DNA from: Coriobacteriia bacterium | Lineage (GTDB): Bacteria > Actinomycetota > Coriobacteriia > WRKU01 > WQUG01 | Reading direction: 5' to 3' | DNA: 61,635 bases | NCBI GenBank assembly: GCA_009785795.1 | Contig: WQVN01000003.1 | Location: forward strand, 1 to 61,635 | Shown here: piece after piece, positions 672 through 58,906 of the stretch | Layout of the letters: each line of letters begins with the position of its first letter | Position numbering within the stretch: the first letter of the stretch is position 1 | Notes under the pieces: model-generated | The model's database searches: none | Told to the model about the DNA's origin: nothing | What the model saw: the letters and a program-made list of their open reading frames with translations, nothing else | Made by a program: the position numbers and the translations under genes

Positions 672-702
672 CTAAGCTCTCTTTCCTTCAATGTGGCACT
701 CA

Positions 703-17998: not shown

Positions 17999-18796
17999 TT
18001 AAACGGGTGCAATTCCTGCAAGGAGCCAGAATACTGCCATGGCAACAAATACTGCTGGCACCATGTTGCCAATGCGCAGCTTCAGACCTGCCGTTAGGTT
18101 CAGGCCAATGCCTACAATCAGCACACCACCTACTGCAGCAATACCGTTAATGGCAAGCATAGGAATGACGTCGCCAATCGCAAAAGCAAGCAGTGCAATA
18201 AAGCCCTGCAGAATCAGCACAGGCACCGCAGAAAACATCACACCCATACCCAGCGTCGCTGCAAGAAAGATCGAAATGGTGCCATCAAGTAGCGACTTAA
18301 TAAAAAGGGTGTCGGGATTCCCTAACCCATCTTGAATTGAACCTAGGATTGCCATTGCTCCTACACAATACACCAGGGTCGCTGTCATAAATCCCTGGAC
18401 AAACTTATTGCTGCCATTTTTATGGCCACTTTTCTGGCCTTTTTTCTGACTGTTGCTTTCACCAACATCTAACCTGTCCGACTGAAGACGTCGCTGCAAA
18501 GCTTTACCCATGTACTTCAGGCGCGTTTCAAGTGCCAAAATCTCGCCAATCAAGGTACCAATGATAAGCGCCGCGACAAAAACGATAATCGAATAACGCC
18601 CCAGCATTCCTGGTGCCTGCGACAAGGCAGTTAATGCAGCAATGGAGCCCATCATGCCAATGGCAATGACAGCAAGTCCCTGGACCTGGATGATGCTCTC
18701 GCGCATGCGCTTTTTAACCAGCCTGCCAACCGCAAGTCCAATTTATGAACCCAGTACAATGGCAAGCGCATTGACAACAACTCCCAGCCCTGGCAC
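17999..18796 (-). pseudogene. DUF554 (YqgA-like) membrane protein gene interrupted by an in-frame TAA at codon 18
   Basis: GTG at 18796 directly follows the mnmA TAG stop and has GAGAGGA upstream. The translation VPGLGVVVNALAIVLGS*IGLAVGRLVKKRMRES... matches, from my recollection of the E. coli YqgA sequence, the conserved first helix of that family. The stop codon is at 18745..18743. The tracked ORF (17999..18706) would lack that helix. Confidence 0.6.
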
Positions 18797-29437: not shown

Positions 29438-29490
29438 AGGCAAAGACAAAACATCGTGTTGTGAACCTTCGAAATGCAAGAAAGGCCACT

Positions 29491-30441
29491 ATGAAGCTTA
29501 AAGAAATACATACCTTGGCTGTTGAACTGGGCAAGGAAAATGATCCGCGCAGTGCAGATGCTGTTAAGCGCACTCTGCGCCTGGCACAGGAAGAATTTGA
29601 TGCCCTGTCAGACGAAAAGAAAGTTGACTTCGACCAGGAAAGACTGACTAACCCCTACAGCGATGCGCGTATCCTTGCGGGCGATCCAGATCGTGAGATC
29701 CGCGGACTTATCGCAGGTGTTGACATGGAGGTCGGCGAAGTCATGCTAGCTGATAGGCTGCGCGAAAAAGGTGAGCCTATTGACTTAGTCATGTCTCATC
29801 ACCCCGAAGGCAAGGCATTGACTGGTCTTGCAGAAGTCATGAAGCTTCAGGAAGACATCTTGCATATGTGGGGCGTACCCATTGCTGCCGCAGAAGGCAT
29901 TATGGGCAAGCGCATCAAAGAAGTAGAGCGCGGCATCTGGCCCGTCAATCACAATCAGGCAGTTGATGCAGCCAATCTGCTGGACTTGGCATATATGAGC
30001 ACCCATACCCCCGCAGATAACATGGTGACAACCTTTTTGACTAATCACTTAGAGAGTAAAACTCTCGACACTATGGGTGAGGTCGTAGAAGCAATTAGAG
30101 AAATACCAGAGTACGCCCAGGCCGCAAAAATTGGTGCTGGCCCAAACATCTTGCTGGGCAGTGACAGGGCGCGCGTTGGCAAACTGGTCGTAGAGATGAC
30201 CGGTGGAACCAGCGGATCAGAGGACGCCTATGAACGTCTCAGTGCTGCAGGCGTCAGTACTATGGTGCAGATGCACATGGGCGATAAGCACCGCAAAATG
30301 GCAGAAAAGTACAACATTAACGTCATTATTGCAGGACACATCGCAAGTGATGCGGTAGGCATGAACCTCATTCTTGACCAAATCGAGGCAAACGGAGTCA
30401 AGGTCTACACCTGTAGCGGCATCACTCGCGTCAAGCGATAA
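29491..30441 (+). CDS. NIF3-like dinuclear-metal-centre protein (DUF34 / GTP cyclohydrolase 1 type 2 family)
   Basis: SHHPEG and THTPADN metal-binding-like motifs and a C-terminal GHIASD. ATG at 29491 has GAAAGG upstream. Confidence 0.65.
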   Translation: MKLKEIHTLAVELGKENDPRSADAVKRTLRLAQEEFDALSDEKKVDFDQERLTNPYSDARILAGDPDREIRGLIAGVDMEVGEVMLADRLREKGEPIDLVMSHHPEGKALTGLAEVMKLQEDILHMWGVPIAAAEGIMGKRIKEVERGIWPVNHNQAVDAANLLDLAYMSTHTPADNMVTTFLTNHLESKTLDTMGEVVEAIREIPEYAQAAKIGAGPNILLGSDRARVGKLVVEMTGGTSGSEDAYERLSAAGVSTMVQMHMGDKHRKMAEKYNINVIIAGHIASDAVGMNLILDQIEANGVKVYTCSGITRVKR

Positions 30442-44000: not shown

Positions 44001-45407
44001 CACGCCCGGTGAAGGATTTTGGAAGGATAGATACAGATCACTCGTATCGTTTTTCATGTGCAAAACGAATTGCGTATCATCATCTATCAGCCACATCGTA
44101 TGATAGCCATCTGTGCCAAAGGCCTTTTCAACAGTCATTTCAAATTCGGGGAAAACACGATCATCAGTCAAACGAATTTGTCCAATAGCGTTTAAGTCTA
44201 AAACGACCCTCTCGTCTTCCCAAAAAAAGAGGTCTTCTTGATTTGCGTTGAATGAGCGATGAAAGTAATCAATACTAATACGAGTTCTGCCACCAGGCAT
44301 GGACTCGCTTCCTCCAGGATTGGTAAAGTGTAGCTCATACTGAACATCAATGCCTGGACCATCCAAATCCCTTATCGTAAACAAATTGGTGCGCAAATCG
44401 ACATCATTAAAGCGCTGCCATTTCAAATGCCAGGTGTAATAGTCAGCTGCATCATCTACCTGCACAGTTGCAGCTCGAACAGCACGTGTGCCAACGTTTT
44501 GCGGCCACCAATTCCACTGGCCAGCAACATTCATCAAATTGTCCTGATCGTAGGGCTCCATGCCCGCTGGTGTCTGATTCCCTGGTAGCTGTATGGTAAT
44601 GTCGCGATAGTTATCAATAATCGCGCCACTGTTTAACCCTGTTCTGCCATTGTTCCAGCTCATCGAAACATTAAACGCATCTGTCATGGTCTCGGTCATG
44701 GTCCAGTAATAAGGATTTCCCACAGCTGGCATAAAGCTTGCACTACCAATGCCTGTCGAATACCAATAGTCCATTGTCCAGTCTGGAGGATGACCAGCAT
44801 CGGGGTTTACCACGGTAAGTGTATAGCTAATCGAGTGTTGATTTCCGCCCATCATCGCGGATTGATTTTCAATTTCCCAAATGATCTGATTGCCTTCTTG
44901 GCGCAGCCCTGCAGGCAGGGATCCTAAAACAGCAAATTCACCAATGTCGTCAATAACCTGAACATACACGTCTTTACCATCAATATTCATGGGGCGCAGA
45001 GGATCTTGAGCTATCCCATCAATATCAACGAAATCTCGTGCCCATGCAAACAGGGTAACAGTAACGGTTCCATTGGGTGAATTCAGCCACCAGTCAATAT
45101 TATGCTCAACTGATTTGCCAACTCGAACTTCACCTCGCTGCAAATTATTGCCTACTGGCTGACTAATCGACCCAACGCTAAAGTCAGTGTCGTTTTCGCC
45201 AGTGTGAATGGTAAAGCCTTCAAGCGCTGCATCAAGTGCGGTTGCCATCATCGCAAAGACAACAATTGCAGTGATTAATACAATTAGGGCTACCGCTACA
45301 GCGACTTTGACCTTGATCTTGCCTTGAGTGAGCCACTTGAACACGTCCCTACCTTGAGCAGCAGTCCTGTCTTCTGTTGCAGTGGCAGTCGCATTTTTTG
45401 TCTTCAT
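41046..45407 (-). CDS. large (1453 aa) cell-surface adhesin-like protein with repeated Ig-like domains and a C-terminal sorting signal
   Basis: The start MKTKNATAT at 45407 has GGGAGAG upstream. There is an N-terminal TM/signal anchor. Module starts recur (TNTF...MRLMKTLGG, ANLF...ITVFKQIEG, VNSY...AAVFKQLAG). FctA-like domains lie near the C-terminus, followed by IPPTGL, a hydrophobic helix and RIKRKR. Confidence 0.8.
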   Translation of the reverse strand: MKTKNATATATEDRTAAQGRDVFKWLTQGKIKVKVAVAVALIVLITAIVVFAMMATALDAALEGFTIHTGENDTDFSVGSISQPVGNNLQRGEVRVGKSVEHNIDWWLNSPNGTVTVTLFAWARDFVDIDGIAQDPLRPMNIDGKDVYVQVIDDIGEFAVLGSLPAGLRQEGNQIIWEIENQSAMMGGNQHSISYTLTVVNPDAGHPPDWTMDYWYSTGIGSASFMPAVGNPYYWTMTETMTDAFNVSMSWNNGRTGLNSGAIIDNYRDITIQLPGNQTPAGMEPYDQDNLMNVAGQWNWWPQNVGTRAVRAATVQVDDAADYYTWHLKWQRFNDVDLRTNLFTIRDLDGPGIDVQYELHFTNPGGSESMPGGRTRISIDYFHRSFNANQEDLFFWEDERVVLDLNAIGQIRLTDDRVFPEFEMTVEKAFGTDGYHTMWLIDDDTQFVLHMKNDTSDLYLSFQNPSPGVYVYNGLATEPTPVYFSKNVPAQLTGMPVQGWWQGDYRQITYSLAEHFTWDPETPRQPQVDVTYAVDGELRSEPVIFNPSAGEEKTLVVTNTFVDPAFGQMRLMKTLGGFPAYWGIDGSQEFQVKIWDAYAEVYLLFVQPDEQAITDGWDSPGWIEGTLFCVGNTGSDQVGAGSASWVFSDPYWKDRYQSGTADVFTAFFLFELQEVKLSNLWPGDYEVRELDFSNPPGLLRDSPRSYVNGGEWMDMYRFDGSYADYGTVPPADAVNVIVANLFSHPAGQITVFKQIEGHPEDWNVNDDTEFTVYVRDLHPTLQSWRLLFANHSIDSSLPDNETWRHVGYISIDDGARMACTYYPWDGNLEDAVYALPISVNSPLVLTQMHVEDGRSYIFEEDNDGGHVVRFFVDGKQVADDGTFAGIILDPGESRIATMVNSYLRAVDSRAAVFKQLAGAYAEYDIDGDTDFELRMTDVNAGSNGRLLLFMPGPDEIVDDVSPPIVMRSFTLRGQLDPITDEVWLLVVNPANPADWSWEQSSQTADELGLVADMKFSVNKPSLIHGLVPGDYLLEECNCPDMTYAPTITEGSSLRIGEKDVLAATVTNTFRSIYTPPELDPEDVAIWKLFELPTHEETPEIDFVFDAVPYSFNGDTSRANELPQLNQAAKTISFDQSDTGQIISGIKVISRLSAPLLDGVEFERAGVYTYRISERDDSFVPGERETMVFDSRVWQISFIVQNMPEPSTDVHLMSVQIEEVTIVEGEEVLGGKRLDGIIPFRNVFYYRPLTDPTDPELAPLTISKVVAGDYGNQVQFFAFTMELAAPDLVEEPAVYKAYVVEDGAVVTSVDNGYVEGPDQYGYYLLFHSGLERDFFLRHNQVLVFVDAYFNSGYWVTEHAVPIYRVSAEVLTGGVPVPVQNPTSPGTPLTIDGEFLEQGRNSVDFTNTNYVIPPTGLFTGTAKVSVLIVVLAIVSLLLGSQRIKRKRLELDAMSE

Positions 45408-45549
45408 GGCGATTCTCTCCCCATCACGCAATATACTTGATACGCACATTATATGGGAGGCATTCAATCAGATTTGATGCATTCAAGCATCGTTTACATG
45501 CGGATGCCAAAACGTAGGAATGACGCGCACCAGGCACAATCAAACGCAG

Positions 45550-47433
45550 CTATAAATCGTGGATAAAGCTATATATTTCTTTTGCTATTTCTGGGGTAAT
45601 GCCAGGAGCTTTTGCAAGGTCTTCGCAGCTGGATGTGCGCAGGTTTTTAAAGCTGCCAAAATGCTTCAACAGCGCTTTGCGACGTTTCGGACCAATGCCT
45701 GGAACTTCATCAAGAATACTTGCTGTCATAGCTTTGCTGCGTAGCTTGCGATGGTATTCATTTGCAAAGCGATGTGCCTCATCACGAATACGCTTTACCA
45801 GATGCAGCGAAGCTGAACCATCTGCCAAAATCACAGGACTATCTGACCATGTTGTCCAAATCTCTTCTTCGCGTTTTGCAAGTCCAACAACCGCGATGTC
45901 GTCAATGCCCAATTCATCCAGTACTGCAACAACGGCAGAAAGTTGCGGCTTTCCGCCATCAATTAGCAGCAAGTCAGGAGTGCGTCCAAATCGCTCATCA
46001 GCCATGCGCTTTGAATCAAAGCGGCGCAGCAAGACCTCGCGCATCATGGCAACGTCATTTGCCTGGTCAAACTCCCCACGAATCTTGAAGCGTCGATACG
46101 CAGCCTTATCTGCACGTCCATTGGCAAACACAACCATTGAGCCTACTGAATGGCTGCCACGCAAAGTCGATATGTCGTAGCTTTCTATACGCAGTGGCGG
46201 ACTGTCCAGTGACAACGCAGATTCCAGCTGCAATAGAGCAGCATTTAATCGCTCTGTATCATAGTGTGTGCGAACTTTATAGCGCAGCAAGGCGTGATTT
46301 GCATTTTGCTGAGCCATGTCCAACACTTTCTTTTTCGTACCTCGCTTTGGTACCGATAGGCGCACCTTACCCGCCTTAGGATTATTGCTTGTTTCGCGCC
46401 TGCGATGGGTCAAAAAATCCTCGATAGCCTGCTGTTTGTCACCGAATTCAATCTCGCACAAAACTTCAGCAGGAATCTGCCCAGCGCTTAGATAGTAGTG
46501 TCCTAAAAAGCCCTGTGCCAGATCATCAAAGCTAATATCAAGCCCTTTGTCCAGGATGAAGTCGTTGCCATAAAGCACAGTGCCTTCGCGCACATGCAAG
46601 ACATATGCTGCAGCAATCGTTTCCTCGCGTGCAAAGCCCAGTACATCGTAGTTGGCATTACTGTCTGATACAACAATCTGTCGTTTCTTAATGCTGGAAA
46701 GCCCGCTCAAGCGATTTCGCATACGTGCTGCAAGTTCATAATTCAAATCAGTCGCAGCATCTTGCATTTGAGCTTCCAGCTTGCGTTCAAGCGCTGCGCT
46801 ATTACCTTCAAGCAATGATATAGCATTTTGAACATGGTCTGCATACTCTTCGGGAGTAATTGCAAGACTACACACTCCTGAACCATAGCCTAGCTGCGAG
46901 TCAAAGCAGGGGCGTGGCAGCGGCTTTGCAAAATCACTGCGCAGCATACGCTTATACTCGGCACAGGTAGACTTGCACAGCGGAATGACACGACGCAAAG
47001 TGTCCACCGTTTCGCGCGCTCCTCGTGCATCGGTATAGGGACCAAAATAGCGTGTACCTGCACGCTTCTTTTCGCGCGTATACTTAATGGCAGGATAGGC
47101 AGCATCCATTGTCAGTGCAATGTAGGGATAGGATTTGTCATCGCGAAACATCACATTATAGGGCGGCGATAACTGCTTGATGAGAGTAATCTCCATCATC
47201 AAGGCCTCGGCTTCAGATGAGGTCACAACGTAATCAAAGCTTGCAACCTCGCACATCATGCTTGCAGTCCACTCACGACCATCGTGTCCTGTGAAGTATT
47301 GCCGCATGCGCTTGCGAAGCTCTTTGGATTTGCCCACATAAAGGACGCGCTCATCTGCATCTTTCCACAGGTAAACACCGGGGGAAATGGGTACATGTTT
47401 AAGCTGTTCACTTAGTTGTGGAGGCATGTCCAT
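45550..47433 (-). CDS. uvrC: excinuclease ABC subunit C
   Basis: GIY-YIG N-terminus (PGVYLWKD...LYVGKSKELRKR), a UVR domain, an endonuclease V-like domain and C-terminal HhH motifs. The start is ambiguous among the ATGs at 47442, 47433 and 47427 and the GTG at 47466. Confidence 0.93.
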   Translation of the reverse strand: MDMPPQLSEQLKHVPISPGVYLWKDADERVLYVGKSKELRKRMRQYFTGHDGREWTASMMCEVASFDYVVTSSEAEALMMEITLIKQLSPPYNVMFRDDKSYPYIALTMDAAYPAIKYTREKKRAGTRYFGPYTDARGARETVDTLRRVIPLCKSTCAEYKRMLRSDFAKPLPRPCFDSQLGYGSGVCSLAITPEEYADHVQNAISLLEGNSAALERKLEAQMQDAATDLNYELAARMRNRLSGLSSIKKRQIVVSDSNANYDVLGFAREETIAAAYVLHVREGTVLYGNDFILDKGLDISFDDLAQGFLGHYYLSAGQIPAEVLCEIEFGDKQQAIEDFLTHRRRETSNNPKAGKVRLSVPKRGTKKKVLDMAQQNANHALLRYKVRTHYDTERLNAALLQLESALSLDSPPLRIESYDISTLRGSHSVGSMVVFANGRADKAAYRRFKIRGEFDQANDVAMMREVLLRRFDSKRMADERFGRTPDLLLIDGGKPQLSAVVAVLDELGIDDIAVVGLAKREEEIWTTWSDSPVILADGSASLHLVKRIRDEAHRFANEYHRKLRSKAMTASILDEVPGIGPKRRKALLKHFGSFKNLRTSSCEDLAKAPGITPEIAKEIYSFIHDL

Positions 47434-47508
47434 ACCTGCCATTATAGCCCAGAGCACATCTATCACTACCTACTTGCAGTCAGAAAATGTGGCATATACA
47501 CATGCCCT

Positions 47509-47563
47509 ATAAAAAGGGGCAAGCTTTATGCCTGCCCCTCTTGCCCCTATTCCTCTTGCCCCT
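47509..47563 (-). terminator. rho-independent terminator of the ABC-2 operon
   Basis: On the minus strand AGGGGCAAG is present twice (its complement ctcttgcccct appears as a direct repeat on the plus strand). It pairs with CTTGCCCCT, which is followed by TTTTAT. Confidence 0.6.
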
Positions 47564-47576
47564 GTCCTTCTTATTG

Positions 47577-48770
47577 CTAACTTGCGCTGGACTGTAAGCG
47601 CAAACGACTCAATGCAAGTGCCACTGCAAAAAAGGTCATAGCAAACAGCACTAGCATTCCCAGGTTGCCCAATAGCGGTGTGATTGTTTGTGCCGACACT
47701 GCTTGTGCTTGAGCAAGTTCTGTAATTGCGTTGCCATAATAATAGGTTGGCACGAACTGCGCGATAGATTGCATGATGTCTGGCATAAAATCAGTCGGAA
47801 TGAAAATGCCACCCATAAAGGCAAATACCAGACCGATTATATTGCCTGCAACATTCATAGTAGTCTCACTTGCAAGAATCTGCCCCAATAGGAACGCCAA
47901 AGAAAGCGCAACAAGAGAAAAGGCCAGCAGTGATACCAATAAAAGAATAATCACCGTCGCAGATACTCCAACGAGTGCATCGCGATAGACCACTAGTCCT
48001 AGTCCACCAACCACTGCCCAGGAAAACAGCATGGCGACAAAGCACGCTGCTGCAAGCTGCATGTTAAATTTCAGCCTGCTTACAGGTGCCGCAAGATCTC
48101 GCTTGCGCACATCAGTCCTGTTAAATGCCGCAAGCAACACACTTACCGATATGATAACTGAAAGCAATATCGTATAGCTTGCAAAGGTCATATAACCTAA
48201 ATAGGAAACAGACATTGCAGTACTGTCCTCGTATTGCATCACAGTAGCTACCGCACTGTCTTCCATGCTCTCTTTTGCAAGCTGCGCTGCTTCATGCGGT
48301 GTTGCAGCTGTGCCACTTTGCAGATAGAGGCGTGCTGCACTTAAATAGTCATTGACAAGGGGATCCATCAGGGCACCAAAAATCACCGTTTGACTGATAA
48401 CCGTGTCAATCACAGGACTTGCCATGCCATGTGCAGCTGCTGATGCAAATTCGTCGCCATAGCCAGCAGGAATTATCATGATGTAAGATGCATAGTTTTG
48501 TGCAACAGCATCTTGCATTGACTGTCTATCATCTGCAAGCTCAACGATCTCTGCACGACTCGCTACAAAGTCAGCAAATGCTTCAGAAAAATCATTGCCC
48601 TGATCACGGTTAATGATGGCAACAGTGGGTCGCGCCTCTTCAAATTCGTTCTGACTGTCATCAATGCCCATGCTCATAAAAATGCCAATCGCAGAAAGTG
48701 CTGTCAAGTAGGTCAGCAGATAAACGGGACGACTAAAGAAAATGCGAAGTGCAGTTCTAAATATGTGCAT
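47577..48770 (-). CDS. ABC-2 type transporter permease
   Basis: N-terminal TM helix, a large extracytoplasmic loop, then a cluster of about 5 C-terminal TM helices. It is in an operon with a paralogous permease and an ABC ATPase. Confidence 0.75.
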   Translation of the reverse strand: MHIFRTALRIFFSRPVYLLTYLTALSAIGIFMSMGIDDSQNEFEEARPTVAIINRDQGNDFSEAFADFVASRAEIVELADDRQSMQDAVAQNYASYIMIIPAGYGDEFASAAAHGMASPVIDTVISQTVIFGALMDPLVNDYLSAARLYLQSGTAATPHEAAQLAKESMEDSAVATVMQYEDSTAMSVSYLGYMTFASYTILLSVIISVSVLLAAFNRTDVRKRDLAAPVSRLKFNMQLAAACFVAMLFSWAVVGGLGLVVYRDALVGVSATVIILLLVSLLAFSLVALSLAFLLGQILASETTMNVAGNIIGLVFAFMGGIFIPTDFMPDIMQSIAQFVPTYYYGNAITELAQAQAVSAQTITPLLGNLGMLVLFAMTFFAVALALSRLRLQSSAS

Positions 48771-49920
48771 ATCGCTGCCTCCTTAAGAATAGTAGTGCAC
48801 CGACAAAAAGAACAATGGACATAATCAGCAGGCTTATCAGGCCTTGAAAAAACTGCACGTAGCTATCGTAAAAGTACAGAGCATAAAACAGACTTGCTAC
48901 CTGTTCGACAGGATTTAGCTGTTGCAGATAAGGAAAGTTACGCGTGATATTATCGGCAAGTCGCATGCTGGGATCACCGTAAAGGCCTGCAAACAGAGCA
49001 GAGAAGCAGGCAATTACTGTCAGAATCCCCGCCTTTACACCCTCTGTCAGTGTCGGAATTGAACCCACCAGTGCTCCCAGGGATGTTGCCATTAATGCTG
49101 CACATGCAAGGGCAAGGATGCCAGCAAAGTCATTACTGCCAAAGTTAATGTCAAGAATGAATCGTGCATAACTGTAAGCAATCAACAGGCAGACAAGTGA
49201 AAATATCCAGCAGGCTGCAAAGGTGGCACAAAGAGTCTTTAGCCTACTGGTAGCACCAACTGCCCTCCTTGCACCAAGATCAGATAGATTAGCTTGGGTA
49301 CGCATAATCCCAATTAGTGCAATATTTGCTGCAAGTACGGCAATCATGCCCAGTAGCGCAAAATAATAACGAACCGACATGACAGATTCGTTGGCAGTCA
49401 CCGTGACCTGCTGTGTGAAACTTGCAGGATCGGATAAACTTGTCAGTAGGACAGGATCAGCAAGCGCCTGAGGATTGTGCTGTGCAACTGTCTGAATAGA
49501 TGCTTGGGCACGAACAAAACGATCCGCAATATCCTTTAGAATCGTGCGCCTAAAATCACTAGGTGTAAAACGAGGAGAAAAATACACGCGAGGATTTGCG
49601 TCTGTGCCAATCTGAAAATAGCCAACGATTTCACCATCAAGCAAAAGCTGGTCTGCTTCTTCTTGTGTCTCCACGTGACGCATATCTAGAATCTGGTCAT
49701 CTCCTGGCTGTGACAGTGTTGCAATCACATCAGCAAATTCAGAAGCATTCGCATAGTTAATATCTTCAACAACAGCAGTTGGAATGGGATTCATCGCAGA
49801 AAAATCGCCCGAGATTGTCAGAAACATTGTTGCCAAAACCAGGGGAAACAAAATGACCCACAGCAACACATCCTTGTTGCGTGCCAATGAGAGTACGCTA
49901 TATTTAAAGGTATTAAGCAT
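48757..49920 (-). CDS. ABC-2 type transporter permease
   Basis: Same architecture as the downstream paralogue. It overlaps that gene by 14 nt. Confidence 0.75.
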   Translation of the reverse strand: MLNTFKYSVLSLARNKDVLLWVILFPLVLATMFLTISGDFSAMNPIPTAVVEDINYANASEFADVIATLSQPGDDQILDMRHVETQEEADQLLLDGEIVGYFQIGTDANPRVYFSPRFTPSDFRRTILKDIADRFVRAQASIQTVAQHNPQALADPVLLTSLSDPASFTQQVTVTANESVMSVRYYFALLGMIAVLAANIALIGIMRTQANLSDLGARRAVGATSRLKTLCATFAACWIFSLVCLLIAYSYARFILDINFGSNDFAGILALACAALMATSLGALVGSIPTLTEGVKAGILTVIACFSALFAGLYGDPSMRLADNITRNFPYLQQLNPVEQVASLFYALYFYDSYVQFFQGLISLLIMSIVLFVGALLFLRRQRYAHI

Positions 49921-49938
49921 GAACGTCCTCCTTAGTCT

Positions 49939-50697
49939 TTAATCTCGAAGCTCGGTGCCAGTCAATTCAAGAAAGACGTCATTAAGGGTCGGTTCTTGAA
50001 TTATGACCTTCTTTTCGCCGCCTATCATGCCTTTCAGCTCACTACTGCTGCCATTTGCGATTGTGCGACCGTTGTCCATGATGACAATGCGTGTGCAAAT
50101 TTCTTCAACTTCTTCCATGTAGTGACTGGTATAAACTATCGTTGAGCCATCGCGATTCAGCTGTTGAATGCCCTCGAGGATAGAGTTTCGACTTTGCGGA
50201 TCAACGGCAACGGTTGGCTCATCAAAAAATATCAATTCTGGCTTGTGGGCAACTCCACAGGCTATGTTTAGGCGACGCTGCAAGCCACCTGACAGCTTTT
50301 TGGGACGAAACTTGACATAGTCCTCCAGACCAACAAACTGGATTGCTTCATCCACCAAAGCCTTACGTCGTCCCCTATCGGATACATACATAGCGCAGAA
50401 ATAATCAATGTTTTCGCGCACAGTCAATTCCTCAAAGACGGCAACATTTTGCGGAACAACGCCAATTCGTCGCTTTAGGTCATAGCGCGCAGGGGTCATG
50501 GACTCACCAAACAGCTTAATGCTGCCCTTATCATAGGTAAGCAACTGCAAAATGCAGTTAATCGCAGTTGTCTTGCCGCTACCATTAGGTCCCAGCAGTC
50601 CCAACACCTCGCCTTGCGCAATGTCAAGACTAAAATGATCAAGAGCTGTCAAGTCGCCATAACGTTTTACAAGGCTTTCAACATGTACTACCGACAT
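49939..50697 (-). CDS. ABC transporter ATP-binding protein
   Basis: Walker A GPNGSGKTT, signature LSGGLQRRL and Walker B LIFFDEPT. ATG at 50697 has GAAAGGA upstream. Confidence 0.9.
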   Translation of the reverse strand: MSVVHVESLVKRYGDLTALDHFSLDIAQGEVLGLLGPNGSGKTTAINCILQLLTYDKGSIKLFGESMTPARYDLKRRIGVVPQNVAVFEELTVRENIDYFCAMYVSDRGRRKALVDEAIQFVGLEDYVKFRPKKLSGGLQRRLNIACGVAHKPELIFFDEPTVAVDPQSRNSILEGIQQLNRDGSTIVYTSHYMEEVEEICTRIVIMDNGRTIANGSSSELKGMIGGEKKVIIQEPTLNDVFLELTGTELRD

Positions 50698-50915
50698 AAA
50701 CTGTCCTTTCCGTATATTCATGCAAGTCCTACACGCCAATTGGGGTCAATTGGATGGTGCAGACAAAGACTATTACTGCCACTTATTAGTTTCACGCTTT
50801 TTTTCTGTGTATACCAGTGAGCAATGTCACGACTTTGCCATGCCACACATGACAAATGTCATCAATGTGCACGCAGGTAGGCAGGACAGATGTCAGACAG
50901 CTACAATGTTAGGTA

Positions 50916-52145
50916 ATGAATCGAATTATCGACAAAGCAACAATACTGCTGTGCTGCTTTGCAGTACTGCTTTTTATTCCTCATGATATTCCAATCGTCA
51001 TTGCTCTTCTTTTCGCTCTTACTGCAAGTTCACTGCAGGAAAGCAGGCTACTTCCCCACGAGGCACGCAGCGCATGCTTGCTGCTCTATGTAGCACTTGC
51101 ACTACTTCTTCCCCCCGCTATTGTCTTTTTACCCCTAATTGCGTATGACCTTGTTAGTGCGCGCCAGCGGATTTTGCGCTTGTGCTGGATTATTCCTTCT
51201 GTTGCGGTGATTTGGAATGCAAGTGGGCTGCCTATCCAAGTGGTAGTGATTTTGGGATTGGTCAGCCTTGTATCTTGCCTGCTGTCCTGGAAAACTAGCT
51301 CACTTGCTGCTTTGCAGGCAGCGCGCCATAGCCAGCGCGACGAATTACTTGAACTTTCTCGATCACTTGAGAAGAGGAACCGTCACCTGCAAGAAAAGCA
51401 AGACTACGAGGTGCTTGTAGCTACACTTGATGAACGTGCCCGTATCGCACGCGAGATCCATGATAATGTGGGCCACTTATTAACCCGCTCGACACTGCAG
51501 ATTAAAGCACTCCAGGTTACCTACAGTGCTGATGTGAAAGACAACCCACAGACCATCAGTGGATTAACACAAATTGAAGACAGCATTACCGAAGCCTTTG
51601 AAACAGTGCGACAAAGTGTCCACTCTCTGCATAGCGATGCCTTTGACTTTAAGATCCAGCTGCAGTCCCTTGCAGATAAATCTCACGGATACAAAACTGC
51701 TCTACAGTACAACATTGAGCACATTCCGACAAACGTCGCCTATGCTCTTATTGCGATTGTCCGTGAAGCTCTCACCAATGCTGAAAAGCATAGTGATGCA
51801 AGTCAGGTAAGCATATCTGCAATCGAATATCCTGCCTTTTATCAGCTGATAGTTCAAGATAACGGCAGCAGAAACCCTTTTGCCTCTTCTGCCCCTTTCA
51901 CGAGCAAAGACGGCATACCTCGCAGTGGCACAAAAAGGCACAAGGCAAAGGGGATTCATGCGGGCAATGATGATGTCCATAGTGGCATTGGCAGTGATAG
52001 CAGCAGTGGCATTGGTATGCACACTATGGCAGAGCGCGTCCATGCTCTGAATGGCATCTTCAAATTCGACTATCAGAGCGGAGTCAGGATATTTGCCTCG
52101 ATTCCAAAGTGCGATTCACATGCAGATAAGGAGAATGCAGTATGA
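50916..52145 (+). CDS. sensor histidine kinase (HisKA_3 / NarL-partner type) with an unusual insertion of about 45 aa in the ATP-binding domain
   Basis: Membrane N-terminus, H-box ARIAREIHDNVGHLL, N-box EALTNAEKH and G-box GIGMHTMAERV. A long insert (SRNPFASS...DGIPRSGTKRHKAKGIH...GSDSSS) separates DNG from the G-box. Confidence 0.85.
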   Translation: MNRIIDKATILLCCFAVLLFIPHDIPIVIALLFALTASSLQESRLLPHEARSACLLLYVALALLLPPAIVFLPLIAYDLVSARQRILRLCWIIPSVAVIWNASGLPIQVVVILGLVSLVSCLLSWKTSSLAALQAARHSQRDELLELSRSLEKRNRHLQEKQDYEVLVATLDERARIAREIHDNVGHLLTRSTLQIKALQVTYSADVKDNPQTISGLTQIEDSITEAFETVRQSVHSLHSDAFDFKIQLQSLADKSHGYKTALQYNIEHIPTNVAYALIAIVREALTNAEKHSDASQVSISAIEYPAFYQLIVQDNGSRNPFASSAPFTSKDGIPRSGTKRHKAKGIHAGNDDVHSGIGSDSSSGIGMHTMAERVHALNGIFKFDYQSGVRIFASIPKCDSHADKENAV

Positions 52146-52828
52146 ACGAACTAATTAGAGTAGCGCTAGTTGATGACGACCCCTTTGTGCGTGCTTCACT
52201 CGCCACTATTCTTTCTGCAGATGATAGCGTCGAAATATGTGGTGAAGCAGGCAACGGAAAGGATGCAATTGCGCTTTATGCAGATGTGCAGCCCGACATT
52301 TTGCTCATGGACATTCAGATGCCTACTGTTGATGAAATCGCTAATGGGCTTGACGCAGCGACAGAAATTCTGCAGGGCTTTCCTGATGCACGAATTGTTT
52401 TTCTGACAACCTTCTCAGATGAAGAATATCTAAAAACTGCTCTGCGTCTGGGTTCAAAAGGCTACCTGATTAAGCAAGAAGTTGGCACCCTATTGCCTGC
52501 CCTGCGCTCGGTTATGGCAGGACAAGTTGTTCTGGGCTCAGAAATACCAGAAAAAATGGGGGCACTCCTTGCAGATAAGGATGCGAGCAGCGACAAGCAC
52601 GTACGCGAACAAGCAGCACGCGACGGTCTATCAGAGCGAGAATTTCAAGTGCTTGAACTCATTGCATCTGGACAGGACAACAAAGAAGTTGCAGCAGAGC
52701 TTTTCGTGAGTGAGGGTACTGCGCGTAACTACGTGAGCAATATATTGCAGAAACTTGCGCTAAAGAATCGTACGCAGCTTGCAAGCTACTATCATCGAGC
52801 TCTTGGTCAGACTCTTAATAGTCCCTGA
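52142..52828 (+). CDS. LuxR/NarL-family response regulator
   Basis: Receiver domain (VDDDPF..., LLMDIQMP), a C-terminal LuxR HTH (LSEREFQVLELIASGQDNKEVAAELFVSEGTARNYVSNI), and an ATGA overlap with the kinase gene. Confidence 0.9.
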   Translation: MNELIRVALVDDDPFVRASLATILSADDSVEICGEAGNGKDAIALYADVQPDILLMDIQMPTVDEIANGLDAATEILQGFPDARIVFLTTFSDEEYLKTALRLGSKGYLIKQEVGTLLPALRSVMAGQVVLGSEIPEKMGALLADKDASSDKHVREQAARDGLSEREFQVLELIASGQDNKEVAAELFVSEGTARNYVSNILQKLALKNRTQLASYYHRALGQTLNSP

Positions 52829-53604
52829 GCTATGCGCTGCACGACTGCGTTGATGTCAAGCGGACTATAATCCATGCTGTCCTGCTTGCTTCCTTCGCAT
52901 TCCTCAGCGTAGCGAAGGATCTCACCTGTTCCGCCTAAGCGCGCTTCACGAGCACTGATTAGATTGAGCGCACCGTCTGCCACCTGGTCAGGACTTAGAC
53001 CACAGGTATCAATCCGTCTGGCTATGTAGCCAAAGTTGCGCTGCAGCCAATACAGCAGTAGCTCAAAAGCTGATTGCTGAGCGGCAATTGCATTAACGGT
53101 ATAGACACGACTCGCATCCATGCGACGGTGGATTGTCACAGGATCGCCATGCAAGAACAGCAATTCGCCAGATGCTGGTGTTGCAGACATATGAGATCCT
53201 TTGGCTTCGTGCTGCACACTTCGCTCAGGAATGGTGGAAGTGTGTGCATGGGTGCTGGAAAGTGCTTCTGCAGATGTTGCAGCCATCATTTGCTGGGCGC
53301 GCTCTTGCCACAATTCAGGTCTGTAAAAAGCAAAGGTGTCAAGAGGCGAACGGTCAATTACAAACAGCTCAGCTGGATCTGCATTAATGAGCTGATTCTT
53401 GCGTGCAAGCTGCTCAAATATCCATGATTGAATGTCAGCGATGTCATCTTCTGAATGTGCATCCATAGACTGCCCAACTTGAGCTGTCATTGTTTCTGGC
53501 CATTCCTCATAGATGCTTGCCTGTGGCAAGCGTCGAGCAAGCTCATCTCGCAGAGTTGACTTGCCTACCCCCACAACTCCCATGATGTAATAACGCCGCT
53601 GCAC
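52807..53604 (-). CDS. P-loop NTPase, deoxynucleoside-kinase-like; function unknown
   Basis: Walker A GVVGVGKST near the N-terminus and a DRSPLD motif. The GTG start overlaps the uvrA TAG stop by 1 nt. It contains two repeat-derived segments (TIPERSVQHEAKGSH and GEILRYAEECEGS). Confidence 0.7.
   Translation of the reverse strand: MQRRYYIMGVVGVGKSTLRDELARRLPQASIYEEWPETMTAQVGQSMDAHSEDDIADIQSWIFEQLARKNQLINADPAELFVIDRSPLDTFAFYRPELWQERAQQMMAATSAEALSSTHAHTSTIPERSVQHEAKGSHMSATPASGELLFLHGDPVTIHRRMDASRVYTVNAIAAQQSAFELLLYWLQRNFGYIARRIDTCGLSPDQVADGALNLISAREARLGGTGEILRYAEECEGSKQDSMDYSPLDINAVVQRIAQGLLRV
52891..52921. repeat. short-form repeat copy in inverted orientation, with an extra 7-bp flanking inverted repeat
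   Basis: The reverse complement of 52898..52921 is gatccttcgctacgctgaggaatg, which is 21/24 identical to the mnmA copy. tccttcg (52891..52897) pairs with cgaagga (52913..52919). It is translated as EILRYAEECEGS. Confidence 0.7.
53195..53233. repeat. 39-nt long-form repeat copy inside the P-loop gene
   Basis: gatcctttggcttcgtgctgcacacttcgctcaggaatg is 32/39 identical to the fmt copy at 5332..5370. It is translated as IPERSVQHEAKGS. Confidence 0.8.
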
Positions 53605-56417
53605 TAAGACAAAACTTCCCGCAGGTACTTGCCCGTATACGAACCTTTGACCTGAGCAACCTCCTCAGGAGTACCACTGGCTACAACATTGCCACCAGCC
53701 TGTCCTCCTTCAGGACCCAGATCTATAATATGGTCAGCACTCTTGATTACATCTAAGTTATGCTCAACTATAAGCACCGTATTGCCACCATCAACCAGAC
53801 GCTCCAGCACCAGCAACAGCTGACGCACATCATCAAAATGTAATCCAGTCGTTGGTTCATCTAGTATGTAGAATGTTCTTCCCGTACTGCGACGCTGCAA
53901 TTCACTTGCAAGTTTGACGCGCTGTGCTTCTCCACCACTTAAGGTTGTCGCTGCCTGACCCAGACGAATATAACCCAGCCCCACATCAAAGAGTGTTTGC
54001 AACTTGCGCTTAACTGGTGGAATATTTTCAAAAAAGCTCAGGGCTTCTTCAACGCTCATGCCTAAAATATCACTGACATTCTTACCGCGATAAGTCACTT
54101 GTAGCGTCTCGCGATTGTAGCGTTTCCCACCACAAACTTCGCAAGGCACATAAATGTCGGGCAAAAAGTGCATCTCAATCTTTATCTGTCCGTCACCCTT
54201 ACAGGCCTCACAACGACCACCTGCAACGTTAAAGCTAAAGCGTCCTGGCGCATATCCTCGAGCCTTTGCCTCAGGAGTCGACGACAGTAGCCCGCGAATA
54301 TCGTCCCACACTCCTGTATAGGTAGCAGGATTAGATCGCGGAGTACGTCCAATCGGACTCTGATTAATATCAATGACTTTGTCGAGTGCGCCCAATCCAC
54401 GTATTTCACGATAGCTGCCCACACGACGACGTGCACGCTGCAGTCTATTAGCAAGAAGTGGCGCAAGAGTATCAGTGATTAGCGACGATTTCCCGCTGCC
54501 AGATACTCCTGTCACAACAGTCAAAGCCCCAATAGGAATATCAATGTCAATGCCTTGCAGATTATTTTCGCCTGCACCAAATAACTCGATATCGCCACGC
54601 TCTGGATTGCGACGCTCACTGGGTACGGGGATTTCGCGCCTGCCACTCAAATAGTCAGCAGTCATTGACTTGCGGCTGCGCTCAACCTGCTTTGGGGTGC
54701 CCTGTGCAACGATTTCACCGCCATGTTCACCCGCGCCTGGACCCATGTCAATAACATGGTCTGCCGCACGAATTGTATCCTCATCGTGTTCAACCACAAT
54801 TACCGTGTTACCTAGGTCTCGCAAACGCTCAAGTGTCGCAATCAGGCGTGCATTATCGCGCTGATGCAGACCAATGCTGGGCTCATCAAGTATGTACAGT
54901 ACACCCATAAGACCTGCACCAATTTGTGTCGCCAGACGAATACGTTGTGCTTCTCCGCCACTTAGCGTCGCAGTTGCACGCTCAAGAGTCAAATAGTCTA
55001 GCCCAACATCAACCAGAAAGTTCAGTCGCTCGACAATTTCTTTATTCACGCGTGCTGCAATGGCAAGGTCGCGCTCACTTAATGTCAGGCCATTAAAGAA
55101 ATCCAATGAATCTTTTGCCGACATAGAAGTTATCTGAAAGATATTCTTGCCCCCCACGGTAACGGCAAGAATCTCTGGTTTTAGACGTGCACCCCCACAG
55201 GTCTTACAGGGAATAACTGCCATGTAACGCTCCATTTTTGTGCGCACTTGCTCAGAGTCAGAGTCTGCATGCTTGCGCATGACCTCTGCAACTGCGCCTC
55301 CCCATGTGCTAAACCAGTGAGTCTCGCGACCGCTCCGTGTCATGTATCTAACCTGAATGCGATCTTCTCCTGTGCCAAACATAAACTTATCGCGCACGTC
55401 CACAGGTAGCTCACCCCAAGGAGTATCTATATCAGCACCAATGTGGTCTGCAATTGCTGCAAACAATTGCGGATAATAGTTGCCACCTGTACCAAAGGGA
55501 GCAAGTGCGCCCTGAGCTATGGACAGTTCGGGATCGGGCGCAACAAGTGCTGCATCAACTTCGAGACGAGAACCCAGACCACTGCAGTCTGGACATGCTC
55601 CATATGGCGCATTAAAACTGAAGTCGCGCGGAGCAAGCTCATCAAGTGATATGCCATGTTCGGGACAAGCAAGTGCCTGCGAAAAAGTTTGTGTGTCTTC
55701 TCCTGCAAGCACTGTCACCAGGCCGCCTGCAATACGCAGGGCAACCTCGACGGCATCTGTCAGGCGGGTACGTGAACTTTCACGCAGTACGATGCGATCA
55801 ACCACTACATCGATATCATGCTTGAATTTCTTATCAAGTTCGATTTTCTCATCGAGAGTGCGCAATTCGCCATCAACACGAACACGCAAAAATCCTTCTG
55901 CGCGCAAATCTTCAAAGAGCTTTGCAAACTCGCCTTTGCGTCCACGCACTACAGGGGCAAGCACCTGCAGGCGATCACCCTCTGCCCCCTGCATGATAAG
56001 GTCAACTATCTGGTCAGGAGTCTGACGACTAATTTCAATTCCACAGACAGGACAATGGGGAATGCCCACACGTGCGAACAACAGGCGCAGATAGTCATAG
56101 ATTTCAGTTACCGTACCAACCGTTGAGCGCGGATTCTTACTCGTGGTTTTTTGATCTATCGATACTGCAGGCGAAAGCCCCTCAATGTGATCAACATCGG
56201 GCTTGCTCATCTGTCCAAGAAATTGACGAGCATAAGCAGAAAGTGACTCAACGTAACGTCGCTGTCCCTCTGCATAAATAGTGTCAAAAGCAAGCGAAGA
56301 CTTCCCACTGCCAGAAAGTCCGGTAATCACAACCAATTTGTCGCGCGGAATCTGCAAATCAATATTTTGCAGATTGTGTTCACGTGCTCCTTTTATCGCA
56401 ATTTTTTCCGTAGCCAA
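53604..56417 (-). CDS. uvrA: excinuclease ABC subunit A
   Basis: Two ABC ATPase modules (GLSGSGKSS and GVSGSGKSS), zinc-finger cysteines, LSGGEAQR signatures, and a TTG start at 56417. Confidence 0.95.
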
Positions 56418-56456
56418 GATTATTTAGTTCTCCTTACGAAATCATGTATTAAAATC

Positions 56457-56489
56457 TACCGAAAGTACGGTATCCTTACTATTATAGCA
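56457..56489 (-). promoter_or_regulatory. candidate uvrA promoter (extended -10 TGCTATAAT) followed by the palindrome TACCG-N6-CGGTA
   Basis: On the minus strand TGCTATAAT occupies 56489..56481. The inverted repeat taccgaaagtacggta occupies 56457..56472, 8 nt further downstream on that strand and 40 nt before the TTG start. Confidence 0.3.
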
Positions 56490-56546
56490 AGATTATCCTC
56501 AATTAGGACAAACAACTATTCGTTAATATGCATAAGGAGTAGGTCC

Positions 56547-57095
56547 ATGGCAAGAGGCTCAAGTGGTGACAGAGGTACGACCATTGTTGGCAGTGGTCAT
56601 GCTGCTAATCGTATGCCAAAAAATCATGTGCTCGTCGAATTCTCTGGTGCATTAGATGAAGCACAAGTTGCCCTAGGATTTGCCATTGTCGAATCTCAGG
56701 CGCAGGAACACGCGCATCAACTGAGCGAACTCACTGACTGTCTGGTCTGGATGCAGCGACAGATATTCGCCTCGGGAACTATCGTCTTGAAAAATGCTCC
56801 TATGGATGCAATCGCTGATTGGTCATGGGACAAACTACTTGAAGAAGTTGAGCGCTGCAACAACTATTTTGCCCCAACAAAGCCTATACGTGACTTCATC
56901 TTGCCAGGCGGATCAGAACTCGCAGCTCGTATAGAGTTTGTACGTGTCGCTATCAGAAGAGTCGAACGAAGCTACTGTGCTTGTAGTTTTCCCGACCGCG
57001 ATGCCTTGCCATTCTACAACCGCCTATCAAAGCTGGCATTCACCCTTGCCCGCCACAGTAATGAAGTCCTTGAAGCACCTGAAACTCTACTGTAA
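56547..57095 (+). CDS. ATP:cob(I)alamin adenosyltransferase, PduO type
   Basis: The start MARGSSGDRGTT has AAGGAG 8 nt upstream. GD.GTT and GALDEAQVALG motifs are typical of the PduO/MMAB family. Size is about 183 aa. Confidence 0.8.
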   Translation: MARGSSGDRGTTIVGSGHAANRMPKNHVLVEFSGALDEAQVALGFAIVESQAQEHAHQLSELTDCLVWMQRQIFASGTIVLKNAPMDAIADWSWDKLLEEVERCNNYFAPTKPIRDFILPGGSELAARIEFVRVAIRRVERSYCACSFPDRDALPFYNRLSKLAFTLARHSNEVLEAPETLL

Positions 57096-57098
57096 TTG

Positions 57099-57123
57099 AA
57101 GATCCTTCGCTTTGCTCAGGAAT
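57099..57123. repeat. intergenic short-form copy of the dispersed repeat
   Basis: aagatccttcgctttgctcaggaat is identical over 25 nt to 19810..19834. It begins 4 nt after the adenosyltransferase stop codon. Confidence 0.85.
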
Positions 57124-57175
57124 AGTAATAATGCATCAAAGCACCAATAGTGTTCCAAACCTTCAGTGTTAAGAC

Positions 57176-57265: not shown

Positions 57266-58906
57266 CTATTCTAGGAAATCGCGCAACTTAGCAGCATAGC
57301 TAGGGTGACGCAGCTTATTCAAAGTTTTCGACTCAATCTGACGAATGCGCTCGCGGGTTACCCCAAATTCTCTGCCAACTTCTTCGAGAGTGCGCGCATG
57401 ACCATCTAACAGACCAAATCGTAGTTCAACAACCTTGCGCTCACGCTCTGATAATTCATCCAGTACGCGATTCAAGCCTTCTTGCAACAGGGTATGTCCT
57501 GCAGCCTCTGATGGACCCGCCACAAGAGTGTCTTCTAAGAAGTCACCCAGCTGACTGTCCTCTTCTTCGCCAATTGGCGTTTCCAGTGATACTGGTTCCT
57601 GACTGATTTTTAAGATCTCGCGAATACGATCACCGTCAAGACCCATTTTCTCGCCAATCTGTTCTGGTGTGGGATCCTCTCCCAATTCTTGCACCAATTG
57701 ACGCTGAATACGCACAAGTTTATTGATGGTCTCTACCATGTGAACAGGAATACGGATAGTGCGTGCCTGATCTGCAATGGCACGAGTAATCGCCTGACGA
57801 ATCCACCATGTTGCATAGGTTGAAAACTTAAAGCCCTTTTTATAGTCGAACTTCTCAACAGCACGAATTAATCCCAGATTGCCCTCTTGGATCAGGTCAA
57901 GGAATGACATGCCGCGTCCAATATACTTCTTTGCAATCGAAACCACGAGGCGCAAGTTTGCCTCGACAAGACGTGCCTTTGCGTCAAGCCCAATCTGTTC
58001 TTGACGAATGAGGCGGCGCTCAATTGGTCTGGGCAGCGCAGTTCCTTCTTCGTCTGCCTTTTCCAGTTCTGCCGTCGCCTCGAGTCCAATTTCAATCTTT
58101 TTTGCAAGGTCAACTTCCTGTGCTGCAGTAAGCAAATTGACTTTGCCAATTTCTTTCAAGTACATACGCACACTGTCAGTTGTCATGGTAACTGACACTT
58201 GGCGCTCACGCGTGCTTTTCTTGCCCTTTTTAGAAGTCGGTTTTGCAGTCTCGCGAATAATTGACTCGAGTTCGCGGATATCAATATCAGTTGATTTTTT
58301 ACCTGTTGACAGCTTTTCGAGCGACTCAACGTCTACTTCTACCCCATCGCCGTCTTCATCAACAGCCAGTGCAATCTCAACGTCTGAATCTGCACTCTCA
58401 CCTGAAATCGTTTCATCAACTTCAATGTCATCGTCTGTATCATCAGCATCAGCACTGGGTGCCACATTTGCGCTCTCTACATCATCACCGTCATCTTCGA
58501 GATCTGCGATAGTGTCATCTGTGTCGCTTTCCTCGCCATCAAGCAATGCAATCATCTCGCCTGCGTCAATAGATTCCTTTGCAACAGCGTCATCGATTTT
58601 GATGCCCTGACCTTCAATGAACTCATAAATTTTGTCAGCATCATAATCTTCTTCAACTGCATGAATCAAAGATTCTTGTATTTGATCATCACTCAGACGT
58701 CCTGCAGACTTACCCTCATTGACTAGGCTGCGGAATTGTTCGGCTAGCTCACTGTCAAAATTGATTTCACTGATAAATTTATCTACTCCGGCAGCAGTCT
58801 CTGACTTAGTTGTTTTCGACTTAGCTGCAGGAGCCTTTTTGGCTGCAGTCTTTTTTACTTTCGCCCTTGAGGCAGCAGTTTTTGTACCTTTTGTTTCTTT
58901 GCTCAT
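57266..58906 (-). CDS. rpoD: primary RNA polymerase sigma factor
   Basis: Regions 1.2 to 4.2 are recognisable ([48 protein letters not shown]), preceded by a long acidic N-terminal region. Confidence 0.95.

Follow-up and report, generated by a model that had tools for sequence, protein, structure and literature searches.

We analysed a 61,635-nt stretch of DNA (contig WQVN01000003.1, positions 1-61,635, assembly GCA_009785795.1) from a termite-gut Coriobacteriia bacterium, referred to below, over its whole length, as the window. In it, a gene for a kinase-like protein whose start overlaps the stop of uvrA hosts two copies of a short DNA repeat, one in each orientation. The window holds six copies of this repeat family, three short (25 nt) and three long or long-like (40 nt), and five of the six lie inside genes. 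The same repeat recurs far outside this genome, in about a dozen phyla. The host gene, its two copies, the protein segments that contain them and the four remaining copies are as follows.

52807-53604, minus strand: kinase-like host gene, 265 aa (open reading frame, ORF; Pfam AAA_28)
53604-56417, minus strand: uvrA, its stop overlapped by the host gene start
53194-53233, minus strand: long-form copy in the host gene, 40 nt, sense, CATTCCTGAGCGAAGTGTGCAGCACGAAGCCAAAGGATCT, translated (T)IPERSVQHEAKGS
52898-52922, plus strand: short-form copy, 25 nt, antisense to the host gene, CATTCCTCAGCGTAGCGAAGGATCT, translated EILRYAEEC
53188-53262, minus strand: window-specific protein segment 1, aa 115-139, holding the long copy (from the orthologue alignment)
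52873-52938, minus strand: window-specific protein segment 2, aa 223-244, holding the short copy (from the orthologue alignment)
5139-6332, minus strand: fmt gene
5331-5370, minus strand: family copy, long form, in fmt, translated IIPERSAQHRVEGS
5400-5439, minus strand: family copy in fmt, a 40-nt variant whose CATTCCT/AGGAATG stem pairs perfectly, translated SIPERSEECRRQGS
19811-19835, minus strand: family copy, short form, in mnmA (18797-20032, minus strand), translated IIPEQSEGS
57100-57124, minus strand: family copy, short form, intergenic, 5 nt past the stop of a PduO-type gene (56367-57095, plus strand)

Repeat copies in the host gene and across the window

The long copy of the host gene is identical to the long-form copy in fmt (5331-5370, minus strand) at 32 of 39 positions, and the short copy to that in mnmA (19811-19835, minus strand) at 21 of 24, the same counts that an earlier note on this DNA, made from the letters alone, had given. 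A 15-mer search allowing up to three mismatches gave 8 matches in the window against 1.97 expected, and a two-ended pattern gave 7 against 0.185 expected (200 Markov simulations), six of these seven being true copies. Peptide regular expressions run over all six frames of the window revealed no decayed copies beyond the six, and there are no inverted dimers in the window. The four sense copies in window genes share one reading frame (IIPERSAQHRVEGS, SIPERSEECRRQGS, IIPEQSEGS and TIPERSVQHEAKGS).

The segments that hold the two host-gene copies appear to be inserts in the protein. The orthologue set comprised 13 homologues of 201-257 aa from a protein search, and the four with a source name are Coriobacteriia metagenome-assembled genomes; by column count in the alignment, segments 1 and 2 are both missing from at least 12 of the 13. 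An AlphaFold2 model of the host protein, built on this alignment, has a mean predicted local distance difference test score (pLDDT) of 82.5, with 149 residues at or above 90 and a confident core. Both segments are modelled as coil, with pLDDT below 50 at residues 122-132 of segment 1 and 226-238 of segment 2, in contrast to the core, where it exceeds 90. In two related Coriobacteriia, uvrA, the kinase-like gene and uvrC follow one another directly, with overlaps, and no repeat copy was found in about 40 kb around the orthologous locus of these relatives. Because the orthologues lack the segments and the relatives' loci lack copies, the inserts appear specific to this lineage.

The product of the host gene has a Walker A motif and a weak match to Pfam AAA_28 (E 7e-8), and Foldseek searches of the PDB returned deoxynucleoside, thymidylate and adenylate kinases as best matches (E ~5e-7). 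On its predicted structure it is a P-loop protein with a nucleoside/nucleotide-kinase fold, and the label P-loop kinase-like, which the earlier note had attached to the gene, is a fair one, since the core falls among these kinases.

The other in-gene copies of the window also sit at breaks in their proteins. Profile and PDB alignments of the fmt product break at about residue 289, and the mnmA copy falls in a loop missing from solved MnmA structures. In fmt, 29 nt separate the two 40-nt copies, and a 5' half copy in degenerate form (ATCATTCCcagtacTGAGC, near 5462-5480) is a third unit there; jointly (5331-5480) they make up a long insert that sets the N-terminal formyltransferase domain apart from the C-terminal one. 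The intergenic copy (57100-57124) is located downstream of rpoD (57266-58906, minus strand).

A tagged hairpin repeat in many phyla

The wider family has the consensus (T/C)GTCATCCTGAGCGAAGCGAAGGATC(T/C). Its 21-mer TCCTGAGCRAAGCGAAGGATC is present in at least 120 genome stretches from about a dozen phyla in a one-genome-per-species collection, against about 0.5 stretches expected for uniform composition by our own arithmetic. The guess in the earlier note that the element could belong to a much wider repeat family was therefore right. Among the matches listed, carriers belong to Acidobacteriota, Chloroflexota, Gemmatimonadota, Nitrospirota, Verrucomicrobiota, Planctomycetota, Patescibacteria, Omnitrophota, Bacteroidota, Bacillota, Bdellovibrionota and several classes of Proteobacteria, and include the isolates Acidicapsa dinghuensis, Mucilaginibacter sp. 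SG564 and Hymenobacter piscis. The sequence type also occurs in Cyanobacteriota (plasmids) and, in decayed form, in Actinomycetota. On plasmids it is rare (Phocaeicola, Planktothrix, Gloeothece, Nostoc, Granulicella and Hymenobacter), in GenBank phages it is almost absent, and IMG/VR contigs, which may include host flanks, gave 38 stretches with the repeat.

The long variant exceeds the short one by 15 nt and has the centre GTGC-GCA-GCAC. A long-form pattern, TCCTGAGCGNAGTGNGCAGCA, matched 49 metagenome stretches, about 44 of which have a TGTCA head and a GAAGGA tail, both outside the search pattern; the long-form consensus is tGTCATCCTGAGCGgAGTGCGCAGCACGaAGTCGAAGGAyC. Similar long and short copies, with the head TTGTCA, are found on other contigs of the same termite-gut samples.

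A hairpin is conserved at the level of the family. Among 151 GAGCGAAGCGA cores in the fetched loci, 131 have flanks complementary at five of five positions, and nine stems were seen (ATCCT/AGGAT, ATTCT/AGAAT, ATTCC/GGAAT, ATTTC/GAAAT, GTCCT/AGGAC, ACCCT/AGGGT, ATGCT/AGCAT, ATGTT/AACAT and ATCCC/GGGAT). The head preceding these 151 cores is TGTC in 104 and CGTC in 21. Across 32 distinct variants, 96% of alignment cells are paired and double changes occur in all five outer pairs (20 cells); none of 500 shuffles reached the observed values, and controls in which the register was slid dropped to 17-48% paired. A few obvious non-members had been taken out of the covariation alignment by hand, a choice of which the tally of 131 in 151 is independent. 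We relied on covariation because nearest-neighbour folding of single copies gives energies close to those of shuffles, probably since the parameters carry no bonus for a GNA mini-hairpin or for tandem G.A pairs. The short-form centre, GA-GC-GAA-GC-GA, combines both features: a GNA-type mini-hairpin flanked by tandem G.A mismatches, GA opposite GA. Loop variants GAA, GCA, GTA and GGA fit the GNA type, and AAA loops are also present. The d(GCGNAGC) DNA mini-hairpin has been described as extraordinarily stable (PMC13037366).

In many loci a forward copy is followed, after a spacer of 10-40 nt, by one in reverse, and the inverted doublet of one such locus (L013) folds into a single long hairpin of -43.2 kcal/mol (z -15.7). 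A known RNA family was considered and rejected: no Rfam model matched the window at its gathering score, and 18 carrier loci gave only a flavin mononucleotide (FMN) riboswitch. A perfect inverted doublet elsewhere (L089, 1439-1502) scored 47 bits against the Rfam family mir-9242 and 39 bits against mir-61, both below gathering, and these scores follow from perfect hairpin shape alone; inverted doublets of this kind could pass for microRNA precursors in contaminated data.

By crude gene calls, about 70% of the copies elsewhere are intergenic (64 between tandem genes, 23 between convergent and 12 between divergent ones) and at most 41 lie inside ORFs, many at ORF edges. Six in-frame copies outside the window are in Pfam-verified genes; such copies occur in uvrA and atpH of Bacteroidales, in a PdxK-type kinase gene of Lachnospiraceae and, on metagenome contigs, in uvrC, a ThiF-family gene and an RlmL-type methyltransferase gene. 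In the uvrA of Bacteroidales RGIG7799 (L116, ~936-1140), an insert of about 70 aa contains several family units in both orientations, one variant having a CCCAC/GTGGG stem around a reverse-oriented GAGCGCAGCGAA centre; this insert is thus a composite cluster in a repair gene. At several loci, tandem 5' half copies (GTCATCCTGAGC plus 6-9 nt) are placed directly upstream of full copies, in arrays of 2-3 units of about 20 nt (TGTCATCCTGAGC or a variant; L014, L020, L022, L024, L038, L041, L070 and L096) that look like the outcome of slippage at the hairpin or of nested insertion.

The six translations of the wide consensus are VILSEAKDL, HPERSEGS, EILRFAQDD, RSFASLRMT and two frames with stops. 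The strings ILRFAQ.. and PERSEGS, which the earlier note mentioned for hypothetical ORFs of unrelated bacteria, are translations of this repeat. More generally, where hypothetical proteins of many phyla contain HPERSEGS, ILRFAQDD, VILSEAKDL or RSFASLRMT, these peptides can be recognised as renderings of one DNA repeat. That note further held that coding sequence can accommodate the element in either orientation, which agrees with orthologues that do without the segments, a host gene that stays open and a core predicted to fold confidently, and also with Pfam-verified in-gene copies of both orientations in other phyla. Its remark that all antisense frames of the short form are free of stops is correct for the window consensus but not for the copy at 52898 itself, which has a TGA in one frame (CGC TGA GGA); in sense orientation one frame is always closed.

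In-gene copies elsewhere read CHPERS..EG(S/P) in sense and ILRFAQDD-like peptides in antisense. A strict rule of frame use was rejected: 11 of 11 in-gene copies read HPERS (sense) or ILRFAQ (antisense), yet annotated MmeI and PglX genes of Planktothrix read VILSETKDL, and frame use is therefore a preference. On two Planktothrix agardhii plasmids (L217, NZ_LR882964.1; L218, NZ_LR882951.1), MmeI and the BREX gene PglX carry the peptide run VIPQTPTVILSETKDL... followed by several AQNDK/AQNDR units, from which it follows that repeat clusters also lie in frame in cyanobacterial defence genes.

When ORFs lying no more than 1.5 kb from 120 copies were compared all against all by BLAST, the only recurrent genes were those of extracytoplasmic function (ECF) sigma factors and two-component proteins. 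No transposase lies between copy pairs, where the genes are GroEL, a major facilitator superfamily (MFS) transporter, a PAP2 phosphatase and RdgB, and none, Y1 transposases included, is present among the scanned window ORFs. A GIY-YIG or other nuclease, or a transposase, encoded beside the repeat was rejected as a candidate, the neighbours being only the two recurrent classes and ordinary genes.

Origin of the inserts, competing explanations and surrounding genes

We interpret both segments as old, decayed, in-frame copies of a repeat of the repetitive extragenic palindrome (REP) type, carried as neutral passengers in loops of the host protein, and place the probability of this reading at roughly 80%. 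The loss of the tag and the retention of four stem pairs suggest that the window copies are old. They would have arrived within inserts of about 66-96 nt, in this termite-gut Coriobacteriia lineage, after its split from the recorded relatives. The inserts may have survived because their length is a multiple of three, the frame used has no stop, the encoded peptide is hydrophilic and the site is a surface loop outside the kinase core; in the host gene they most likely have no function. As to how the copies moved, we favour, by analogy with GTAG REPs and their REP-associated tyrosine transposases (RAYTs), a trans-acting enzyme that would recognise the single-stranded tag together with the hairpin. 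For the CGTC-tagged class of REPs no enzyme has been reported (PMC3733652).

Several observations weigh against this interpretation. The GTC tag is missing from all six window copies (their heads are TCAT, CCAT, GCAT or CTAT), their canonical stem has only four Watson-Crick pairs and they fold no better than shuffles (z ~0); with the tag lost and the stem short, their membership in the family rests on sequence similarity rather than intact structure. The nearest orthologue of the host protein is 54-67% identical, and among the available contigs, which are from termite guts, we found neither an empty site in a close relative nor a contig without the inserts, so that the polarity, insertion rather than loss, rests on parsimony. 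A target-site duplication was not established: the candidate flanking repeats of the window reach p values of ~0.05 and 0.14, and flanking direct repeats around 139 copies elsewhere show no enrichment. Finally, the near-identity of the repeat type across phyla is left unaccounted for by every mechanism that we tested. The pairings found next to the host-gene copies and the candidate flanking repeats of the window are listed here.

52891-52919, unstranded: flank hairpin at the short copy, arms TCCTTCGC (52891-52898) and GCGAAGGA (52912-52919), 8 bp, 13-nt loop
53215-53244, unstranded: 8-bp inverted repeat at the long copy, plus-strand arms CACACTTC (53215-53222) and GAAGTGTG (53237-53244)
53173-53190 and 53269-53286, unstranded: possible flanking direct repeats, weak evidence, 15 of 18 identical, 96 nt apart, empirical p ~0.05
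second pair of possible flanking repeats, at a long copy: 16 of 20 identical, 78 nt apart, empirical p 0.14

Each host-gene copy has an exact 8-nt complement 13-14 nt upstream that matches the bases after GAGC in the copy, in the same geometry. At the short copy this creates the hairpin that the earlier note had seen, which is one base pair longer than described there; folded as DNA it has a dG of -7.8 kcal/mol (z -3.1). At the long copy the upstream flank pairs with the interior of the copy (-8.4 kcal/mol, z -1.8). The other four window copies have no flank pairing of this kind, and the flank hairpins are therefore local to the host gene and not a trait of the family. A conserved hairpin, which the earlier note had envisaged, exists at family level, where stem changes are compensatory, but not in the form of the flank hairpin at the short copy.

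We consider it unlikely that the copies arose at a stalled fork, through template switching or hairpin-primed repair synthesis, rather than by transposition; the polymerase would there have copied a stable hairpin repeat located elsewhere before going back. Such a process would account for the inverted flank complements adjoining both host-gene copies, and for loose flanking duplications, without a transposase. No transposase is tied to the family here or in the literature, the GCGAAGC/GCGNAGC centre is a DNA mini-hairpin described as extraordinarily stable (PMC13037366), tandem 5' half-copy arrays precede full copies, and possible flanking repeats of 18-20 nt lie 96 and 78 nt apart in the window. 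The flanking repeats are, however, not significant, the conserved unpaired tag and the outward-headed dimers look like features for recognition by an enzyme, and the process is nowhere directly visible in the data.

Retention of the copies as nucleic acid seems distinctly unlikely. They would then act as hairpins in mRNA or single-stranded DNA that pause translation, shield the uvrA-operon transcript from RNases, or serve as a site for gyrase or another protein, roles of the kind suggested for intergenic REPs. Two coincidental 8-nt complements are themselves improbable, and RNA-level roles of REPs have been proposed in the literature (PMC3733652). Set against this, the other four window copies lack flank pairing, and no relative carries the segments.

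A functional protein motif or small domain under peptide selection, with the nucleotide likeness following from a shared motif, is very improbable and largely refuted already. It could draw on the one frame, IPERS..EGS, used by the four sense copies in three genes and by most sense in-gene copies in other phyla. Both segments are nevertheless absent from at least 12 of 13 orthologues and modelled as coil with pLDDT below 50; one window copy is intergenic (57100-57124) and one is read antisense; conservation acts at the DNA level, in third codon positions and on both strands, with copies elsewhere mostly intergenic; and the Planktothrix genes use another sense frame, VILSETKDL. For annotation, the odd peptides in the kinase-like gene, fmt and mnmA should be treated as loop inserts derived from a repeat and not as functional motifs.

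Chance likeness or an assembly artefact has a negligible probability and is refuted: the pieces are short (24-40 nt) and the contigs of two termite-gut runs end at the long copy, but shuffle and simulation tests reject chance, and the two segments are not an assembly artefact because three independent termite-gut metagenome assemblies (ENA, NCBI GCA_009780535.1 and Logan) contain the identical host gene sequence, one contig of run X1 covering both copies.

It is possible, though doubtful, that the type is an undescribed multi-phylum micro-element, a 25-nt GCGNAGC tagged hairpin with a 40-nt variant. It would spread without a dedicated transposase, through the universal replication or repair machinery or by crossing phyla on phage or transformed DNA, and would repeatedly seed disordered loops of housekeeping proteins, for example in Uvr proteins and in enzymes that modify tRNA or rRNA. 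If true, near-identity over a dozen phyla would reflect constraint by universal machinery and not recent common descent. The data sharpen the question of how a 25-nt element without a known enzyme stays near-identical across phyla, and the cultured carriers A. dinghuensis, Mucilaginibacter sp. SG564 and H. piscis make that question testable.

Around the host gene, the window departs from its relatives. Unlike in the two related Coriobacteriia, a block of about 5.3 kb (47577-52828) parts the kinase-like gene from uvrC (45550-47466; the interval spans 45550-53604). The block encodes two ABC-2 permeases, an ATP-binding cassette (ABC) ATPase, a histidine kinase and a LuxR-type response regulator, whose gene shares 22 nt (52807-52828) with the 3' end of the kinase-like gene. 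One contig of run X1 has a 13-nt insertion (GTCAGACTCTTAA) behind 52805, where two convergent genes end; it resembles a local tandem duplication. Near uvrC, the relatives encode a protein of about 2000 aa without a Pfam match. In the window, a 1473-aa ORF (41046-45467, minus strand) and smaller ORFs such as 29461-30441 (plus strand) and 102-1548 (minus strand) have no Pfam match at E 1e-6. In a DUF554 protein (17999-18706, minus strand), 227 residues cover profile positions 28-220, an excess of about 34 over the profile; its gene showed no repeat copy, and the extra residues could be a fully decayed insert or merely normal variation.

Comparison with known repeat systems

The closest described relatives are the CGTC-tagged REPs defined by Di Nocera, De Gregorio and Rocco (2013, BMC Genomics 14:522; PMC3733652). 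These have an unpaired CGTC or TGTC (/CCTC) tag at one end; their stems are 8-9 positions long and open with an A-T and then a T-A pair, their loops measure 4-5 nt, their unpaired 3-nt tail has the consensus CCA, and they frequently form inverted dimers foldable into one large hairpin (PMC3733652). Most are found between tandem or convergent genes; some units are intragenic and in frame, many of these in uvrA, uvrB, uvrC, uvrD, recBCD, polA, dnaE2 and tRNA-modification genes (PMC3733652). No dedicated transposase accompanies them, and they were reported from five phyla; Neisseria dRS3 belongs to the class, as do RPE-4 and RPE-6 of Rickettsia conorii (PMC3733652).

The repeat described here resembles this class in several respects. 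Its wide family has an unpaired YGTC tag, which the six window copies lack; the ATCCT/AGGAT stem starts with A-T and T-A and, if the two G.A pairs and the GC/GC pairs are counted, can be drawn with 9 positions and a 3-nt loop or with 8 and a 5-nt loop, against only four Watson-Crick pairs in the window copies; and the tail, CT or CC and then a variable base, is similar in kind but differs from CCA. Inverted dimers occur (as in the L013 doublet), the copies are mostly intergenic between tandem or convergent genes with some in frame inside genes, uvrA and uvrC included, and no linked transposase was seen. Neither the text nor the supplements of PMC3733652 contain the exact type (ATCCT stem, GAGCGAAGCGA centre, 40-nt long form), and searching the literature for its nucleotide or peptide strings yielded no relevant paper. 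Unlike the five-phylum class, the type extends to Acidobacteriota, Chloroflexota, Gemmatimonadota, Nitrospirota, Verrucomicrobiota, Planctomycetota, Patescibacteria, Bacillota, Bdellovibrionota, Cyanobacteriota (plasmids) and, decayed, Actinomycetota. The position of the host gene in a uvrA-uvrC neighbourhood, together with the uvrA and uvrC copies elsewhere, repeats the published observation on independent data. Nucleotide-excision-repair and RNA-modification genes are thereby confirmed as places where repeats of this kind insert in frame.

Rickettsia palindromic elements (RPEs) are a second point of reference. RPE-1, as described by Ogata and Claverie, is reportedly palindromic, 100-150 bp long, confined to Rickettsia and found in frame in housekeeping genes. 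The present copies are likewise in-frame palindromic inserts that add surface peptides without destroying the protein, but their core is 25-40 nt, in inserts of 66-96 nt, and their host range is very wide.

GTAG REPs and their doublets (REPINs), with RAYT transposases (Nunvar 2010, PMC2817692; Bertels and Rainey 2011, PMC3116915), share with our repeat a tetranucleotide tag followed by a hairpin and inverted doublets that fold into one long hairpin, and some enterobacterial and Coxiella REPs have GCGAAGC-like centres, as here. In that system the GTAG tag is cleaved by a RAYT whose gene is flanked by REPs. Unlike theirs, the tag here is YGTC, no RAYT was found near any copy or among the scanned window ORFs, and the type is almost the same across phyla, whereas GTAG REP sequences are specific to species or genera. 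The small dispersed repeats (SDRs) of Nostocaceae (Elhai et al. 2008, Genome Res 18:1484) are 21-27 nt long and are reported only from Nostocaceae; compared by description, they resemble our repeat in being very small, apparently mobile and without a known enzyme. The short-form centre is exactly the GCGAAGC of the d(GCGNAGC) mini-hairpin (Hirao and co-workers; PMC13037366), although that is a physical motif of oligonucleotides and not a genomic repeat family, and AAA loops occur here as well. From classical miniature inverted-repeat transposable elements (MITEs), such as Correia/NEMIS, which bear the terminal inverted repeats of a parent insertion sequence and a fixed short target-site duplication, the repeat differs in having no enriched flanking duplication and no parent insertion sequence near or between copies. 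Judged by its architecture, the repeat appears to match the CGTC/TGTC-tagged kind of REP, already described, also as Rickettsia RPEs, and our observations widen the published range of that kind by many phyla, Actinomycetota among them with a decayed set.

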